From: Escherichia phage vB_EcoM_ULIM9
Strand: one strand, 5' to 3'
Sequence record: OQ850288
DNA length: 64,000 nucleotides
Both the position numbers and the translations under genes were made by a program. Positions 2,943 to 54,674 of this stretch are shown here, piece after piece; position 1 is the stretch's first letter; every line of letters begins with the position of its first letter. The notes beneath the pieces are model-generated. The model was given only the letters and a program-made list of their open reading frames with translations. It had not been told where the DNA came from and did not search any database.

Positions 2943-3728
2943 TTAGTTCTTTGCGTCTAAGAAGGTAACTCCCGGTGAAGAGAAAATTTCCTCAACATCC
3001 TCATCAGTTCTTGCATAGATATACGTATCTGCATCACTGCCAAATGTTACTGCAATCTTGTGATTGCTCTTCGACAGGTGGGTAACTAGAGCGTTACTTA
3101 GAGACATCTTTTCAACCGGAGGGTTACTTTGATGTATCTTGCCTTTTCTTCGTCTGAAGAGGGTAACTGCATCATTAGTGAATACTACTACACCTGAAAA
3201 GTATTCTGGTTCACAGTAGTTCTTCCAACCTGAGCGTAACTTGTGGTACATCTCTCCTTCATAGACATACAGATACACATCTACACTCTTCATCACCTGA
3301 TTAATGATGACTGTGACGGCTTGAGAGTCTAGTCCACCGATACCTGCACCAATCATAGGTAACCCAACTTTCTTCAACTGATTGACTTCACAGTATCTGT
3401 TAAGCTGTTTCAAAGATGACTCTAAAGCACTGTATCGGGCATCTTTACCAGTCTTAAGCTGAGTGTAAAGGTTAGCTATACGGCCTTGTTCTAAACGTGC
3501 TACAGAGAAATTGCCTAGTAAATTTTCACAGGGTTTGTGGCCTATACCACCTGCATACAGATAGACTTCTGTATCAGTCTCATATGCTTTTGGGTAAAGT
3601 TTAGAAATCTTGTCAGCGATACCTGCACCCATTAAATTCATACAGTTGCAACCGTGACCAATGATATCAAACTTACCTTTATCAAATGCGGAGAAGATGT
3701 CCCCATTGATGATTTTTACAATACCCAT
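2943..3728 (-). CDS. macro-domain protein (OARD1/TARG1-like ADP-ribose processing) with an extra C-terminal domain
   Basis: N-terminal NGDIF...DIIGHGCNCMNLMGAGIA and later GLPMIGAGIGGLD match the CxxxC-MGAGIA and glycine-rich loops of Poa1p/OARD1-type macro domains, as recalled. Confidence 0.6.
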   Translation of the reverse strand: MGIVKIINGDIFSAFDKGKFDIIGHGCNCMNLMGAGIADKISKLYPKAYETDTEVYLYAGGIGHKPCENLLGNFSVARLEQGRIANLYTQLKTGKDARYSALESSLKQLNRYCEVNQLKKVGLPMIGAGIGGLDSQAVTVIINQVMKSVDVYLYVYEGEMYHKLRSGWKNYCEPEYFSGVVVFTNDAVTLFRRRKGKIHQSNPPVEKMSLSNALVTHLSKSNHKIAVTFGSDADTYIYARTDEDVEEIFSSPGVTFLDAKN

Positions 3729-3929
3729 TTAGCATCTCTCCCAAGATTCTTTATCTTCTGAAGGTTTTACACGTTGCCCTTCGTGGTCTACCCAGATACA
3801 TCCACAACCTTCACAGATTACTGGCATTGCATAGCCAGCTTTAAAGTCATCTTCAGTGATAAGACCTTTTAAGTCACCTGTATCACGTCCGAACATTTCG
3901 ATAGAGCAGTCTTTGCAGAAGTCAGCCAT
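3729..3929 (-). CDS. small zinc-ribbon protein
   Basis: 66 aa with CxxC (CKDC) and CEGCGC motifs; stop abuts the start of the macro-domain gene. Confidence 0.45.
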   Translation of the reverse strand: MADFCKDCSIEMFGRDTGDLKGLITEDDFKAGYAMPVICEGCGCIWVDHEGQRVKPSEDKESWERC

Positions 3930-4155
3930 GAATAATTACCTCTTGAGTGATGATACCTTTACCACAACGACTTTTAAAATCTTCTAATGGTTCAGAGAAG
4001 AAGTCACGGAAATGGTTACTGAACTCACGTTTCATCACCTTCTTGTAAGTTAACACATCTTCTCCTGCAAACGGGACGACTTCATGTCTCCCTTTGAATA
4101 CTGCTGAACTTACAATCTTACGTGTCTTTTTATCTCTGGCTAGTATTACTTTCAT
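3922..4155 (-). CDS. hypothetical protein
   Basis: 77-aa ORF, tightly packed with neighbours. Confidence 0.4.
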   Translation of the reverse strand: MKVILARDKKTRKIVSSAVFKGRHEVVPFAGEDVLTYKKVMKREFSNHFRDFFSEPLEDFKSRCGKGIITQEVIIHG

Positions 4156-4462
4156 AGTTTACCTTCTCAGTTAGCTCATACAAGTCAACATGCTCAATAC
4201 TATCAATGTTGATACCAATCTTTTTGAAGCGTTCTATCACTTCGTTGTCAGTCATCCATATCAGACACCAATGATTGTGGATGGATTCTTCAAGAAGGTC
4301 AACACAATCTTTAAAAGTTTTTGTATCACTTCTTGTTCCGACTACTGCGATTGTCCCATACAACCACTTACCATTACCATAAGATACCTGTGCTACACCA
4401 ACTTCTTTATCTTTCTCGTAGTAAACGGCTACAAAGTCTCTTCCATTAATCTGCATAGTCAC
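4130..4462 (-). CDS. hypothetical protein
   Basis: 110-aa ORF. Confidence 0.4.
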   Translation of the reverse strand: MTMQINGRDFVAVYYEKDKEVGVAQVSYGNGKWLYGTIAVVGTRSDTKTFKDCVDLLEESIHNHWCLIWMTDNEVIERFKKIGINIDSIEHVDLYELTEKVNYESNTSQR

Positions 4463-4728
4463 TTCCTCGTTTTAAGAACTGCTAAGATTTCTTTAGAGTC
4501 TGGTAAGAACCATGTGTAGTGATTCTCTTTGATTTCTGGATGAGTGTCAACCTTTATTTTGCACTCTTTACCAACATGCTTAAGTTGTGCTGTGACACCT
4601 TGCATAAAGATATGGCACATCACGTTATCCATAATGGTTGGTGAAAAATCAACCCGCATATAAGTTTCTTTTGGTCGTGGTAGCAGTAAGTACCCTTCTA
4701 CATAGAAAGTATCTTCATTCTCTGTCAT
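4459..4728 (-). CDS. hypothetical protein
   Basis: 89-aa ORF; 4-nt overlap with upstream gene. Confidence 0.4.
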   Translation of the reverse strand: MTENEDTFYVEGYLLLPRPKETYMRVDFSPTIMDNVMCHIFMQGVTAQLKHVGKECKIKVDTHPEIKENHYTWFLPDSKEILAVLKTRK

Positions 4729-4994
4729 TGCTGTCTGTTTCCTAATAAAATCATATCAATAAGGTTATTAGCTTTGATTGTGCACTGGTAAAAACCATCA
4801 CGATAAAACTCAAGGGCTGCTGCCACATCACTACCAGTATTACCTTTGACAGTGAATCTTGACTCTTCTTGAGTGTACTTGTCACTCTCACTTACTTGGG
4901 AGTTTTTGAATGTACTGTTCACTTTGTTCGTTGAACACCCTGACATAATTATCAGTAACACAAACATTATAAAACTCTGGCTTAGTTTTTTCAT
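4725..4994 (-). CDS. lipoprotein, putative o-spanin (Rz1-like)
   Basis: signal peptide with lipobox-like IMSGC; the gene starts inside the 3' end of the TM/coiled-coil gene 4888..5235 in another frame. Confidence 0.35.
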   Translation of the reverse strand: MKKLSQSFIMFVLLIIMSGCSTNKVNSTFKNSQVSESDKYTQEESRFTVKGNTGSDVAAALEFYRDGFYQCTIKANNLIDMILLGNRQQ

Positions 4995-5235
4995 ATGTTA
5001 GTACCTCTTTTGTATGCTTATTCTTAGCAAGCACATCTTTCAAATCATTTTTGTAATTGGTGCTGAGTGTGGCTAAACCTTCCTGATAAGCATCTTTGGC
5101 AACACTTATTAATTTCTCATTATTTAGCTCAGCTTCAGCAACTTGGTAGTCTCTGTAAGAGTATCCTCCCCAGACACCTGCTCCAACTAAGAAAACAATT
5201 ATGAAAGTAGCTTGGCAGAACTCTTTAAATGTCAT
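4888..5235 (-). CDS. membrane-anchored protein, putative i-spanin (Rz-like)
   Basis: N-terminal TM helix (FIIVFLVGAGVWGG) followed by a charged helical region; overlapped by the lipoprotein gene. Confidence 0.35.
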   Translation of the reverse strand: MTFKEFCQATFIIVFLVGAGVWGGYSYRDYQVAEAELNNEKLISVAKDAYQEGLATLSTNYKNDLKDVLAKNKHTKEVLTYEKTKPEFYNVCVTDNYVRVFNEQSEQYIQKLPSK

Positions 5236-42434: not shown

Positions 42435-42470
42435 AAGGCTCCCGTAAAAAGGAGCCTTAAACTTTATTTT
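42435..42470. terminator. bidirectional intrinsic terminator between convergent genes
   Basis: aaAAGGCTCCcgtaaaaaGGAGCCTTaaactttattttt, with A-run upstream and T-run downstream. Confidence 0.6.
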
Positions 42471-43109: not shown

Positions 43110-45458
43110 TTAAGCAGTTCTCACCCAAGCCATTAACTTGTAGAACTGGTTAGTAACACTAAATGCTGAACCAGAACCTGTACCACCAGTGTTACCACTA
43201 ACTGTGTGACTGTGAGCACCAATACCTACAGAGTGAGCATGGTCGCCAGCAGATGCAGCAGTACCACTGACTGAGTGAGTGTGCGCACCATCATTTTCAG
43301 TCCAACCAACATGGGTCTGTCTAGAGTTTGAAGACGCGACTCTACCTGATGAAACGTTAGCGTTGTCACCCTGTGAAATTCTGTGTGCGTGTTGCCCAGA
43401 AGTTGCAGCAGTACCACTAACTGAGTGAGTGTGTGCACCAGTACCATTAGTGTTCTTCGTACCATAATCAAAAGATGAAGTGGTAGCAGAGAAACTATGG
43501 GTATGTGATGGTAAGTTACCAACAGCTAACGTCACAGAATCTGAGCCGCCTGTTGTAGCAACATCTGAACCGTTTGCTGCTGCGATTCTGATAGTTCTAC
43601 CAACACCATTGTTCAGGTAAGTCCAAGTTAACCCAGGAAGTGCTGTATTAGGGTCAACATTGCTGTTAAACCACGTTACAATACCTACTGGATAGATTTT
43701 ATTAAGGTCTGTAGAGTCACTAATTGCTGTTGCAATTTTCTGGTCAGTTTCTGCTTTAGTATATGCACCAATCTCTGAAGGAGTTGGTTTAAAATCAGTT
43801 GTGTAAAGCTGTGCCTCTCCGGCATAGTCACCATTTCCGTCATAGGCATAGGTGAATGTTGCCAAACCGTTTGAACCGTATACAAAAGAGATACCCCTTG
43901 CGTGTGCAGCAGTCTTACTAGAGTGAGCAACATGAATTGCCAACTCTTTCAGACCACTAGTCACATTGTTGTTTCTGACAAAACCTGAATACCCAAGATT
44001 AAATGCTGAAGGGTTTCCAAGATTATCTACAGATGCAGTCATCAAAGATTGATTTAATAACTGAGTCTTAACAAAGTATCTAGCATCTAAGTTAGACCAA
44101 TTTTGTGGTTGAACCTGCCCATTAATATACAGATTCTTATTCATACTAACCAATGTTGGCTCTAGGGAAATTTGAGTGCCTGAAAAGCTGTTGCTCAAGG
44201 TTACCACGTTAGAATTAGCAGTTCCTACGCCCAGCCACCACCTAGATACGTTCGCAGTATCCACACCACGGATATATTGTGGCTGTCCCTGTGTTAAGTT
44301 CCTCAATACTAGGCCTTCATTGTTAGATACAATAGTCTGCACATTCGTGAAAGTGTTTGCCACATTAATCTTAGCAAGACTACTCAAAGTAGCTGCTGGA
44401 ATGTATCTAGAGTCGATATTAGCCCAATCAGAAGGTTGAACTTGACCTCCAATTTGGACTGTTCTGCTCATGGTAATGGTGTTACCTAATGAGATTTGTG
44501 TTTTTGCTAAATAGTTATAGATGTTTACAATGTTTTCATCACCATCATTACCAATGTACCACTTATTAGTTCCATCTGATTTCCTTGCTTGGATATACAA
44601 AGCCGCAGTTGTATCTACATTTTGAATAGTAATAGCATTAGCATTCTTCTTAATAACAAAATTAGTGAAAATATTAGAACCACTAAATGTGTTATTGCCA
44701 GCTAACTGCGCAAATCTCTGATTAGCTGCTGTCTGAGTAAAGTATCTAGAATCTAAGTTAGCCCAATCAGATGGTTGAACTTGACCAGTAATCTGGATAG
44801 ATTTGTTCACAGAAATTAGGTTATCCAAAAGAGCTAAATACGCACCGGATTTGACATTTTTGATAACAAGATTGTCTGTACCTCTATTATCATTACCTAG
44901 ATACCACCTGTTAGTGCCATCTACATCTTGACCACGAATATAGAGTGGCATATCCTGTGTGATATTTTTAACAATAAGAGCTTCATTGTCAGAGAGAATA
45001 GCTTGAGTACCTCTAAAGGTGTTATTTACAGCTAGTCTTGCATACCTTGCATCATTCTCTTCATTAGTTCTCATCCCAAGTTCATTAGGACTTGGCTTAT
45101 TCAGAGTATGATAGACAGTTGCTGACCTTGAAGCATCTGCAATAGTTAGTTTAAGGCCGTTTGCGTTGATTTTAAAAGTCTTTAAAACATCCCCAACAGT
45201 AATCTCAGAAGAGCCTGTAGGGTCGAATACAGCCTTGCCACCGTAAAGTAGCTTAACAATTCCTAAGTCACCCGTCATAGTGCTACCAGCAATCTGAACA
45301 AATCTTTCAAGTTTAAAAGATGCTAAGAAATCTTGATAGGTCATTCGACGGTCTTCATCACCCAGCATTTCAGGTCTCTTTTTAACCCTGACATGAAGAA
45401 GGTCGTCTGAACGAATTGTGTCGATTGAGTTTAATTCACTCAACTTGTAGTCTGCCAT
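43110..45458 (-). CDS. long tail fibre protein with internal tandem repeats and His-rich C-terminal domain
   Basis: 782 aa; repeated QVQPSDWANLDSRY-type units; C-terminal HTHS/HSHT repeats ending AWVRTA. Confidence 0.7.
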   Translation of the reverse strand: MADYKLSELNSIDTIRSDDLLHVRVKKRPEMLGDEDRRMTYQDFLASFKLERFVQIAGSTMTGDLGIVKLLYGGKAVFDPTGSSEITVGDVLKTFKINANGLKLTIADASRSATVYHTLNKPSPNELGMRTNEENDARYARLAVNNTFRGTQAILSDNEALIVKNITQDMPLYIRGQDVDGTNRWYLGNDNRGTDNLVIKNVKSGAYLALLDNLISVNKSIQITGQVQPSDWANLDSRYFTQTAANQRFAQLAGNNTFSGSNIFTNFVIKKNANAITIQNVDTTAALYIQARKSDGTNKWYIGNDGDENIVNIYNYLAKTQISLGNTITMSRTVQIGGQVQPSDWANIDSRYIPAATLSSLAKINVANTFTNVQTIVSNNEGLVLRNLTQGQPQYIRGVDTANVSRWWLGVGTANSNVVTLSNSFSGTQISLEPTLVSMNKNLYINGQVQPQNWSNLDARYFVKTQLLNQSLMTASVDNLGNPSAFNLGYSGFVRNNNVTSGLKELAIHVAHSSKTAAHARGISFVYGSNGLATFTYAYDGNGDYAGEAQLYTTDFKPTPSEIGAYTKAETDQKIATAISDSTDLNKIYPVGIVTWFNSNVDPNTALPGLTWTYLNNGVGRTIRIAAANGSDVATTGGSDSVTLAVGNLPSHTHSFSATTSSFDYGTKNTNGTGAHTHSVSGTAATSGQHAHRISQGDNANVSSGRVASSNSRQTHVGWTENDGAHTHSVSGTAASAGDHAHSVGIGAHSHTVSGNTGGTGSGSAFSVTNQFYKLMAWVRTA

Positions 45459-45473
45459 TATAAATTTTCCTCT

Positions 45474-45494
45474 AAAAAGGGGCTATAAAGCCCC
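45474..45494 (-). terminator. intrinsic terminator
   Basis: plus-strand aaaaAGGGGCTataaAGCCCCT 3' of the 390-aa fibre gene. Confidence 0.5.
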
Positions 45495-45504
45495 TGTAAA
45501 GAAA

Positions 45505-46677
45505 TTAAGCTGTTCTCTGCCATACATACAGTACGAAGGATGGCTGCTCAATATTAACTGCCTGACCTCCACCAACGCTATTTGTATTGCCACTATGTGT
45601 ATGTTCAGAAGAAGAAACTGTTACAGTGCCACTGTGCGTGTGTGAACCAATACCAACTGTATGGCTGTGAGCACCAATACCAACCGTGTGGCTGTGGTCA
45701 CCTGATGCACCAGATGTGACGTTAAAGCTGTGTGAGTGCGCACCGTCACTAGAAGTCCTTGATGTTCTTCTTGCACCACCACCATCAGAGTCAGCTACAG
45801 CATTACCAGTGCCATCATTTTCTCTAGGATACACATCATGGTTGTGAGTACCATTGGTGCTAGTGTTACCTGACACACCGTGTGTATGGTTGCCAGTTGT
45901 GTTAGTAGCTTTTGTTCCATAGTCAAAAGAGCTAGTAGTCTTAGTCCCATAGTCAAAAGCTGAAATTGACACAGTTGCATTATGAGTGTGACCACCACCA
46001 CTAAGAGATACAGAGTGGGAGTGTTGAGGCATGTTATTAACTGACAAAGTAACAGTTGAAGCACCAAATACAGAACCTGCTGGTCTTGCATCAGAGGCAT
46101 AACCAACCAATGCCCTACCTTTTGAAACCAACTCCCAAGTACCTCCACAAATTAAATATGTAGAAGGGTTTGCAGAGTTCATGGAAAGATGGATAGTACC
46201 TACCGGATAGGAAGCCTGAACAGCCTTGTACAAGTTATTTACTGCTCTCGCTGTAGCATACTTATCTGCATCTTCATTATAAAGGTTAGATGTTGTCCAG
46301 TTCTGGACATTACTCAACCCTACCTGTACCTTAGTTGTATTGTGCGGATTACTCTTATCATTAATATGCTGTTGAACAAGGCTATTAACCTCTTCGGAAG
46401 ACATAATCTGTAGATTTGCTCTTGCCTCAGCTACATTAACAATATCTGATAAGTTATTTGCAGCAACTAACTGAAGAGCATTAATAACATTATCTAAACC
46501 AATTTGTGTTTTAGTAACACCATGAGGGTTATTTCTTAGGCTTGAGTGTGGAGCAAGCAATTGCTCAAGAGTGCATCTCTTATCCTCAATACCCTGCTTA
46601 AGATGGAAGATATCACTAAGGTCAATTGGTAAGGCTGCTTGAGGCAAGGCACTAATTTGAATTTCACCTACTGCCAT
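45505..46677 (-). CDS. tail fibre protein (second, His-rich C-terminal domain)
   Basis: 390 aa; HSHS, GIGAHSHTVGIGSHTHS repeats; C-terminus VWQRTA parallels the neighbour. Confidence 0.65.
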   Translation of the reverse strand: MAVGEIQISALPQAALPIDLSDIFHLKQGIEDKRCTLEQLLAPHSSLRNNPHGVTKTQIGLDNVINALQLVAANNLSDIVNVAEARANLQIMSSEEVNSLVQQHINDKSNPHNTTKVQVGLSNVQNWTTSNLYNEDADKYATARAVNNLYKAVQASYPVGTIHLSMNSANPSTYLICGGTWELVSKGRALVGYASDARPAGSVFGASTVTLSVNNMPQHSHSVSLSGGGHTHNATVSISAFDYGTKTTSSFDYGTKATNTTGNHTHGVSGNTSTNGTHNHDVYPRENDGTGNAVADSDGGGARRTSRTSSDGAHSHSFNVTSGASGDHSHTVGIGAHSHTVGIGSHTHSGTVTVSSSEHTHSGNTNSVGGGQAVNIEQPSFVLYVWQRTA

Positions 46678-46679
46678 TA

Positions 46680-54674
<7,995 letters not shown>

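Follow-up and report, generated by a model that had tools for sequence, protein, structure and literature searches.

Two adjacent minus-strand genes in the DNA of Escherichia phage vB_EcoM_ULIM9 analyzed here (sequence record OQ850288; the whole stretch of 64,000 nucleotides is referred to as the window) appear to encode the short tail fiber (STF, 390 amino acids [aa]) and the long tail fiber (LTF, 782 aa) of a Felixounavirus. Each protein is read as ending in a metal-stapled collar–needle–head module of the bacteriophage T4 gp37 type, with variable cassettes that are reassorted among related phages by recombination; we place the probability of this reading as a whole at about 0.9. Homology to gp37, the register of the histidines, the pattern of conservation among relatives, extensive mosaicism, and one crossover product are all observed in this analysis. 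The two open reading frames (ORFs) were recovered exactly where an original prediction, made from the nucleotide sequence alone, had placed them (Table 1).

The C-terminal ends of both proteins are dense in His-x-His (HxH) motifs, with six in LTF and nine in STF, all within the last 135–175 residues. By comparison, 2000 residue shuffles per protein returned means of 0.39 (LTF) and 1.42 (STF) and maxima of 3 and 6, in both cases below the observed count; the clusters of HTHS, HSHS, and GIGAHSHTV that had been predicted at both ends are upheld by these numbers. The element GIGAHSHTV is present in both proteins, and the predicted conserved terminus, (A/V)W(V/Q)RTA, was found as AWVRTA in LTF (...MAWVRTA) and as VWQRTA in STF (...YVWQRTA). 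Similarity extends well beyond these elements, as LTF aa 589–782 aligns with STF aa 157–390 at 36% identity (E 2e-40); the C-terminal modules are paralogous, and the shared part is the whole module rather than the terminus. Searches against the solved receptor-binding tip of T4 gp37 (PDB 2XGF) returned E values of 5e-29 for STF and 8e-16 for LTF with single sequences (phmmer), and 3e-29 and 6e-24, respectively, with family profiles, identifying both modules, at the level of sequence, as direct homologs of that tip. The HxH arrays had originally been likened to those of both the long and the short fibers of T4. The likeness to the long fiber protein, gp37, is borne out by the 2XGF homology and by the histidine register described below; the likeness to the short fiber protein, gp12, is not, as no gp12 chain was recovered among the PDB matches for STF or LTF with either single sequences or profiles, and the gp12 receptor domain was therefore not matched. 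STF is "short" in position and length only, with a tip of the gp37 type.

T4 gene 37 was extracted, and its product was aligned with both fibers using MAFFT in true T4 numbering, in which the T4 HxH motifs fall at residues 883, 915, and 929 on one side of the head and at 966, 980, 989, and 998 on the other. All six LTF motifs have a T4 counterpart (H652, H676, and H690 align with T4 H883, H915, and H929; H726, H740, and H749 align with T4 H966, H980, and H989), with the site of T4 H998 missing. In STF, H219, H264, H278, H314, H328, H337, and H346 align with all seven T4 sites, and the two extra motifs, H230 and H359, each lie at the collar-proximal end of their own arm. The motifs are laid out as 3+3 (LTF) and 4+5 (STF) around a variable loop of 33 aa (LTF 693–725, STF 281–313) that aligns with the T4 head, residues 932–965, and the C-termini of both proteins align with T4 residues 1010–1026. 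In the T4 structure, the collar domain D10 is composed of residues 811–881 and 1010–1026, and the needle contains seven iron atoms along its length; H929 and H931 are iron ligands, and their replacement abolishes plaque formation (PMC6957217).

Conservation was assessed across cluster representatives of both families, 119 for LTF and 69 for STF. The LTF histidine pairs are kept in 118–119 of the 119 relatives and the STF pairs in 47–69 of the 69, while conservation is lowest in the head loops, with mean identities of 0.17 (STF 281–300) and 0.50–0.55 (LTF 681–720). The LTF N-terminus, collar, and C-terminus each occur as a single allele; mean identity is 91–100% across aa 1–133 (n = 119), aa 581–660 are 97–100% conserved, and AWVRTA is present in every LTF relative. 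Nearly invariant histidines on either side of a variable loop are what one would expect if structural metal ligands flank a loop that sets specificity. The number of HxH motifs is similarly stable in LTF (3+3 in 117/119); STF relatives have between 6 and 10 of them, most often 9 (50/69). Two short tandem duplications are present in the STF gene: a 27-nucleotide unit in 2.1 copies (45639–45696) encoding VGIGAHSHT/VGIGSHTHS, and a 30-nucleotide unit in 1.9 copies (45903–45959) encoding FDYGTKTTSS/FDYGTKATNT. Both are single-copy in LTF, and because both are recognizable in T4 gp37 they are ancient; the spread of HxH counts among STF relatives is probably due to such units being gained and lost.

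For the trimeric state, metal identity, receptor, and effect on host range, we follow T4 and the characterized Felixounavirus Bas63. Each fiber would be a homotrimer, docked on the baseplate by its N-terminus (LTF on the platform, STF on wedge 2) and binding its receptor with its C-terminal part. The collar would lead into a six-stranded beta needle, in which the chain descends, folds into a small distal head, and comes back up, with the last residues, W-x-R-T-A, tucked into the collar. On the three-fold axis, each HxH motif would come together with its counterparts in the other two chains, giving six histidines per metal ion (Fe2+ in T4), six predicted metal sites in LTF, and nine in STF; the bound ions would staple and rigidify the needle. 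The hypervariable 33-residue head loop would then contact the receptor, which consists of lipopolysaccharide (LPS) core sugars in characterized relatives: the Felixounavirus VpaE1 binds a truncated LPS core in a periodate-sensitive manner (PMC4690856), and Bas63 requires the LPS core to be intact. The LTF shaft is proposed to comprise three sequence-similar, beta-rich units resembling the T4 gp34 rod, separated by conserved linkers and followed by a domain similar to the tail fiber protein S of phage Mu. Conserved linkers, collar, and HxH arms would provide homology anchors, with the variable cassettes being reassorted among phages by recombination between these.

One alternative reading of the histidine ladders is that they bind another metal, such as zinc, or no metal at all, the histidines instead forming a zipper that is hydrogen-bonded or responds to pH. 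The assignment of iron is by analogy with T4 gp37, and the short fiber of T4, gp12, has a His-coordinated zinc; moreover, STF relatives have anywhere from 6 to 10 sites, and single sites are lost in as many as 22 of the 69, suggesting that none is indispensable. We nonetheless regard this alternative as unlikely, as the motifs align residue for residue with the iron ligands of gp37, PDB searches returned no match to the receptor domain of gp12, and the LTF pairs are almost invariant, with the corresponding T4 histidines known to be essential (PMC6957217).

Ahead of its collar, LTF contains three repeat units of 100, 113, and 109 aa that share 30–46% pairwise identity. These repeats were not reported by self-BLAST, and were recovered by anchor-based alignment and a hidden Markov model (HMM) of the unit, to which each copy matches with E of about 1e-44; of a fourth unit, only an 11-residue linker remnant is present. 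The three to four tandem repeats of about 90 aa that had been predicted are thus confirmed as three, and the predicted length fits the conserved core of the unit only. The accompanying claim that the repeats are mirrored by repeated nucleotide blocks holds: the quoted 27-mer is found at 44421 and 44760, 339 nucleotides apart on the plus strand (antisense to the LTF gene), with a degenerate copy at 44094. In Pfam, three stretches of LTF match PF20744 (gp37_trimer; E 2.4e-57, 86 of its 95 positions matched, 191.4 bits against a cut-off of 21.7), and LTF also matches PF03335 (Phage_fiber repeat; 32.7 bits against a cut-off of 20); neither family was listed for STF at E ≤ 0.1. The name gp37_trimer was considered as an indication of homology to the shaft of T4 gp37 and rejected, as the unit HMM has no significant match to T4 gp37. 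Repeat unit 3 does show profile similarity to the T7 gp17 fiber (4A0U, E 1e-4), and the middle domain that follows it matches Mu tail fiber S (8JU3) with E 1e-4 as a single sequence and 1e-7 as a profile (LTF aa 481–576 against Mu S 337–427). The middle domain has 11 alleles over aa 461–560, and LTF variants of 843 and 855 aa have insertions within it.

Alignment with relatives, which the original prediction had suggested as a check for domain shuffling, revealed strong mosaicism. With alleles called at a threshold of 85% identity, the five variable LTF cassettes (three repeat cores, the Mu-S-like middle domain, and the head) have 9–14 alleles each; these occur in 58 combinations among 120 LTF sequences, and four-gamete quartets were found for all 10 cassette pairs. 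The same pattern is apparent in nucleotide comparisons. Phage ULIM8 is 97–100% identical to the window across 44460–44759 and 43–60% identical across 43860–44159; the reverse holds for VpaE1, which also diverges at the head. Identity within the LTF gene swings from 1.00 to 0.43 over a few hundred bases, while STF and the baseplate genes remain at 0.80–1.00 (phage REP5 was left out of the LTF comparison, as its record ends inside the LTF gene). By protein domain, the ULIM8 LTF is 0.98 identical in repeat unit 2, 0.94 in the head, and 0.40 in the middle domain; the VpaE1 LTF is 0.92 identical in unit 3, 0.81 in the middle domain, 0.44 in unit 1, and 0.18 in the head.

A metagenomic LTF relative of 673 aa, here called P0201, lacks exactly one repeat unit (a clean deletion of aa 345–453, corresponding to window 44094–44420). 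Its gene aligns with nucleotides 1–1055 and 1333–2349 of the window gene, and the 50-nucleotide overlap between the two segments is the conserved GQVQPSDW..RY linker block; P0201 is the product that would be expected from an unequal crossover within this repeated block. An assembly artifact was considered as a source of the deletion and is unlikely, given that the assembly k-mer (k = 111) is far longer than the 27-nucleotide shared block and that the protein occurs on two contigs. Shared ends and repeats had been put forward as a recombination hotspot, and both the mosaicism of the relatives and a crossover inside the quoted block support that proposal. Head types also appear to move more widely. 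T4-type heads (65–88% identical to T4 932–965) were found in homologs of both LTF and STF, and gp76 of the Chaseviridae phage ST32 has a head that shares 73% identity with the ULIM9 LTF head, with only 23% identity in the collar, which suggests either transfer of a head cassette across phage families or strong convergence. The STF head type was found in Felixounavirus records only.

The patchy variation might alternatively reflect local point mutation under diversifying selection, with repeats and shared ends playing no part as recombination substrates. The variable zones do coincide with exposed, receptor-facing parts, where positive selection would be expected, and the Bas63 study ascribes divergence of the repeat domains to sequence variation rather than to repeat number (PMC12609058). 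We consider this very improbable in view of the four-gamete quartets between every cassette pair, a nearest neighbor that changes from cassette to cassette with abrupt steps in nucleotide identity, the location of the P0201 deletion junction within the repeated block, and the presence of near-identical head types in different phage families. Reassortment of cassettes by recombination is thus preferred.

The same comparisons raise the possibility, which we hold to be rather doubtful, that the Mu-S-like middle domain (aa 456–584) is a second determinant of LTF specificity and host range besides the head. The hint comes from the co-isolated phages ULIM8 and ULIM9, whose STFs (96–100% identical per domain) and LTF heads (94%) are nearly the same while the middle domain is their most divergent part (40%), and which differ in lysis of strains G205, A-I-137, and A-II-37 (PMC10223428). 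This pair constitutes a natural test of the idea. As a further part of the same doubtful reading, unequal crossover at the conserved GQVQPSDW..RY linkers may adjust LTF length in natural populations.

The wording of the original prediction also implied that the conserved terminus is the fiber tip. C-termini are distal in many fibers, and monomer structure models do not decide the topology of the chain. It is nevertheless scarcely credible that the chain runs in one direction only, with the extreme C-terminus (HxH cluster and W-x-R-T-A) serving as the receptor-binding tip at its distal end. Relatives that differ in their heads have the same, or nearly the same, final 29 residues, making these unfit as a specificity determinant; the C-termini align with the collar-forming residues of T4 gp37 (PMC6957217); and in the Bas63 density the chain turns back on itself at the head (PMC12609058). 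From the alignment, W-x-R-T-A is instead placed on a strand returning to the collar, and the tip corresponds to the variable loop that separates the two HxH arms, a topology that agrees with Bas63.

Several results weigh against the gp37-type, cassette-built reading, or against parts of it. While the STF collar is a clear member of Pfam Gp10_C (63.4 bits against a cut-off of 27; profile match to T4 gp10, 2FKK, E 1.6e-12), the LTF collar scores 24.6 bits, just under the cut-off. Structure prediction had been suggested in the original prediction as a check for metal sites; AlphaFold2 (AF2) monomer models were poor, with predicted local distance difference test (pLDDT) scores of 64.7 (STF) and 46.8 (LTF), and do not resolve metal sites or needle topology; low confidence of this kind is expected for intertwined trimers. 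The best PDB match of the STF model, the gp10 collar, is not significant (E 0.057). No homolog of a gp38-type chaperone was found in the window (tblastn E ≥ 0.2), and folding must therefore differ from that of T4 in this respect. The repeat-unit HMM had no significant match to T4 gp34, gp35, gp36, or gp37 (E 0.02–0.05 for gp34 and gp37 in a five-protein database), and because the units lack significant sequence similarity to gp34 and gp37, the gp34-like label given to the shaft leans on the Bas63 paper, with the low-confidence model lending it weak support: the three repeat cores are modeled as moderately confident beta-rich blocks, and the top eight PDB matches in Foldseek are all to the T4 gp34 rod (E 5e-6, probability 0.99–1.0, TM about 0.13–0.19), ahead of Mu and T7 fibers.

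Table 1. Features of the fiber region and of two comparison loci. Positions refer to the window unless another record is named.
Feature	Position	Strand	Description
LTF gene	43110..45458	−	ORF, 782 aa; ortholog of VpaE1 gp75 and Bas63 gp27
LTF N-terminal conserved region, aa 1–133	45060..45458	−	Putative baseplate-binding domain (after Bas63) and first shaft domain; single allele
LTF repeat unit 1, aa 134–233	44760..45059	−	Variable cassette; unit HMM E 4e-44; 11 alleles
LTF repeat unit 2, aa 234–346	44421..44759	−	Variable cassette; unit HMM E 7e-45; 11 alleles
LTF repeat unit 3, aa 347–455	44094..44420	−	Variable cassette; unit HMM E 2e-46; deleted in variant P0201
LTF middle domain, aa 456–584	43707..44093	−	Similar to Mu tail fiber S (8JU3 match); variable, with indels among relatives
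LTF collar domain, aa 585–650	43509..43706	−	Paralog of STF collar
LTF needle, descending arm, aa 651–692	43383..43508	−	HxH 652, 676, 690
LTF head loop, aa 693–725, RISQGDNANVSSGRVASSNSRQTHVGWTENDGA	43284..43382	−	Variable loop between HxH arms; 14 alleles; predicted receptor-contacting tip
LTF needle, ascending arm, aa 726–753	43200..43283	−	HxH 726, 740, 749
LTF C-terminal strand, aa 754–782, ...AWVRTA	43113..43199	−	Aligned with T4 gp37 C-terminus; predicted to return to collar
27-nucleotide block, AGCCCAATCAGAAGGTTGAACTTGACC	44421..44447	+	Antisense of linker GQVQPSDWA, aa 338–346
Second copy of 27-nucleotide block, one mismatch	44760..44786	+	Antisense of GQVQPSDWA, aa 225–233
Third, degenerate copy of block, AGACCAATTTTGTGGTTGAACCTGCCC	44094..44120	+	Antisense of GQVQPQNWS, aa 447–455; from repeat search
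STF gene	45505..46677	−	ORF, 390 aa; ortholog of VpaE1 gp74 and Bas63 gp26
STF N-terminal part, aa 1–142	46252..46677	−	Putative baseplate-binding region (after Bas63) and helical shaft; helices from AF2
STF collar domain, aa 143–218	46024..46251	−	gp10/gp37 D10 type; Pfam Gp10_C; aligned with T4 gp37 802–885
STF needle, descending arm, aa 219–280	45838..46023	−	HxH 219, 230, 264, 278; duplicated FDYGTK spacer
STF head loop, aa 281–313	45739..45837	−	Aligned with T4 head residues 932–965; hypervariable; predicted receptor-contacting tip
STF needle, ascending arm, aa 314–361	45595..45738	−	HxH 314, 328, 337, 346, 359
STF C-terminal strand, aa 362–390, ...VWQRTA	45508..45594	−	Aligned with T4 gp37 C-terminus (...IVRLA); predicted to return to collar
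100-aa protein just upstream of STF	46680..46982	−	phrog_4141; follows 489-aa and 285-aa wedge proteins in gene order
Small ORF, 64 aa	42836..43030	−	Hydrophobic N-terminus; downstream of LTF
Small ORF, 123 aa	42464..42835	−	Hydrophobic N-terminus, coiled coil; downstream of LTF
GC-rich hairpin	42435..42458	both	T-runs on both strands; between convergent thymidylate synthase gene (+) and 123-aa ORF (−)
P0201 LTF gene	contig L009 (ENA ERZ27237763 k111_2436), 3001..5022		Normal Felixounavirus gene context
ST32 gp76 tail fiber gene	L008, 1781..2827		Unrelated phage of 53 kb

A 4-kb query around the fiber genes matched 230 phage records, nearly all from Escherichia and Salmonella felixounaviruses, at 88–92% identity, and the tail fiber of vB_EcoM_ULIM9 matches LTF with 100% identity; by these matches, the window belongs to a Felixounavirus (a Felix O1/VpaE1-like myovirus) and is essentially phage ULIM9. 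Among the DNA matches listed, ULIM9 itself was absent, although its fiber is present in the protein database. ULIM9 has been described as a Felixounavirus of 86.8 kb that was isolated on an O8:F18 enterotoxigenic Escherichia coli strain (PMC10223428). LTF falls in phrog_4277 (1255 bits) and STF in phrog_2097, a tail fiber family (E 7e-137); NCBIfam contains no family for STF, LTF, or the 100-aa neighbor. Domain by domain, STF shares 90–100% identity with VpaE1 gp74 and with the ULIM8 fiber, and across its full amino acid sequence it is 99.0% identical to REP5 and 97.7% identical to the TH10-type. The nearest relatives depend on the gene considered: REP5 and TH10-type phages for STF, and ULIM8 and VpaE1_ev108-type phages for most of LTF (about 92% nucleotide identity).

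From upstream to downstream on the minus strand, the genes encode proteins of 489, 285, and 100 aa, followed by STF and LTF. This order and these sizes agree with wedge 2, wedge 1, platform, STF, and LTF of Bas63, and it is on gene order and size as given in the Bas63 paper that the assignment of Bas63 orthologs is based (PMC12609058). The order is also found in ULIM8, in VpaE1, and on the contig that carries P0201. By its position, the 100-aa protein would be the LTF-platform protein (Bas63 gp25, T4 gp9-like). Within the STF shaft are two NPHxxTKxQ(I/V)GLxNV motifs (aa 50–66 and 110–126; window 46300–46530), and both regions match many unrelated PHROGs of phage tail and collar fibers; the motif is probably a widespread shaft element.

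Downstream of LTF, the 64-aa and 123-aa ORFs are of membrane type and fall in phrog_402 and phrog_4038, PHROGs with no assigned function. The hairpin beyond them resembles a bidirectional intrinsic terminator at the end of the fiber operon, and since both ORFs sit between LTF and this terminator they appear to be co-transcribed with the fibers. A 65-aa homolog on the contig carrying P0201 matches Pfam PF26925 (Phage_PM2_Gpl). In T4 and ST32, a holin gene comes after the fiber gene; lysis or fiber assembly are candidate roles for the two small proteins.

The prediction of fiber genes in this window is real, was read correctly except for its topology, and describes an ordinary system, the essentials of which are already known, having been published for VpaE1 in 2015 and Bas63 in 2025. 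For VpaE1, gp37 homology was reported for both fibers, with gp75 54% identical to the C-terminal adhesin domain of T4 gp37 (PMC4690856); for Bas63, cryo-EM revealed the collar–needle–head with HxH motifs, gp34-like repeats, and tips and repeats that differ among members of the genus (PMC12609058). The module itself is widespread: with the STF tip as query, 6849 representatives of 50%-identity clusters were matched at E ≤ 0.001 and 513 at E ≤ 1e-10, and in the best matches it is C-terminal in proteins of 200–1176 aa. What this analysis adds is a residue-level map for ULIM9, nine rather than seven STF sites, a quantified reassortment of five LTF cassettes, a one-unit deletion at a repeated linker that qualifies the statement made for Bas63, and head types that are shared across Ounavirinae, T4-like phages, and Chaseviridae. 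For engineering of ULIM9-type therapeutic phages, the map points to the histidines to spare, the 33-residue loops to swap, and the linkers for clean exchange of cassettes.

Among known systems, the closest are the Felixounavirus fiber pairs Bas63 gp26/gp27 (PMC12609058), VpaE1 gp74/gp75 (PMC4690856), and Sf14 gp52/gp53, which share the genus, the gene order, and the two-fiber layout. As in Bas63 and VpaE1, both fibers end in a gp37-like collar–needle–head, LTF has beta-rich repeats, and tips and repeats vary across the genus. The differences are of detail. LTF is 18–100% identical per domain to VpaE1 gp75, its combination of cassette alleles is specific to ULIM9, and nine HxH motifs are present in STF here (as in 50/69 relatives) where seven were reported for Bas63; further, while the Bas63 paper describes repeat number as not varying, the metagenomic P0201 has lost one unit.

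Compared with the T4 gp37 tip (2XGF), the ULIM9 fibers have a homologous collar, HxH motifs in register, a head loop of 33 rather than 34 aa, a C-terminus aligned to the collar, and conserved FDYGTK and GIGAHxHTV elements. Unlike T4, they carry the module fused to a short shaft in one polypeptide rather than at the end of a four-protein fiber, have six or nine sites instead of seven, bear head sequences unrelated to that of T4, and lack a gp38 homolog; the receptors of relatives are in the LPS core, as opposed to the OmpC/LPS of T4. The LTF repeats resemble the T4 gp34 rod (4UXG/5NXH) by structural match of a model with pLDDT 46.8, without significant sequence similarity, and unit 3 resembles T7 gp17 (4A0U) at profile level. 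The LTF middle domain is similar to Mu tail fiber S (8JU3/5YVQ) by both profile and Foldseek, yet unlike Mu S it is internal, lies directly before the collar, and is accompanied by neither a Mu-type chaperone nor an invertible segment. Finally, gp76 of the Carltongylesvirus ST32 (Chaseviridae), a protein of 348 aa from an unrelated family with a divergent collar and more HxH motifs, shares with LTF the same collar–needle–head module and a closely similar head.

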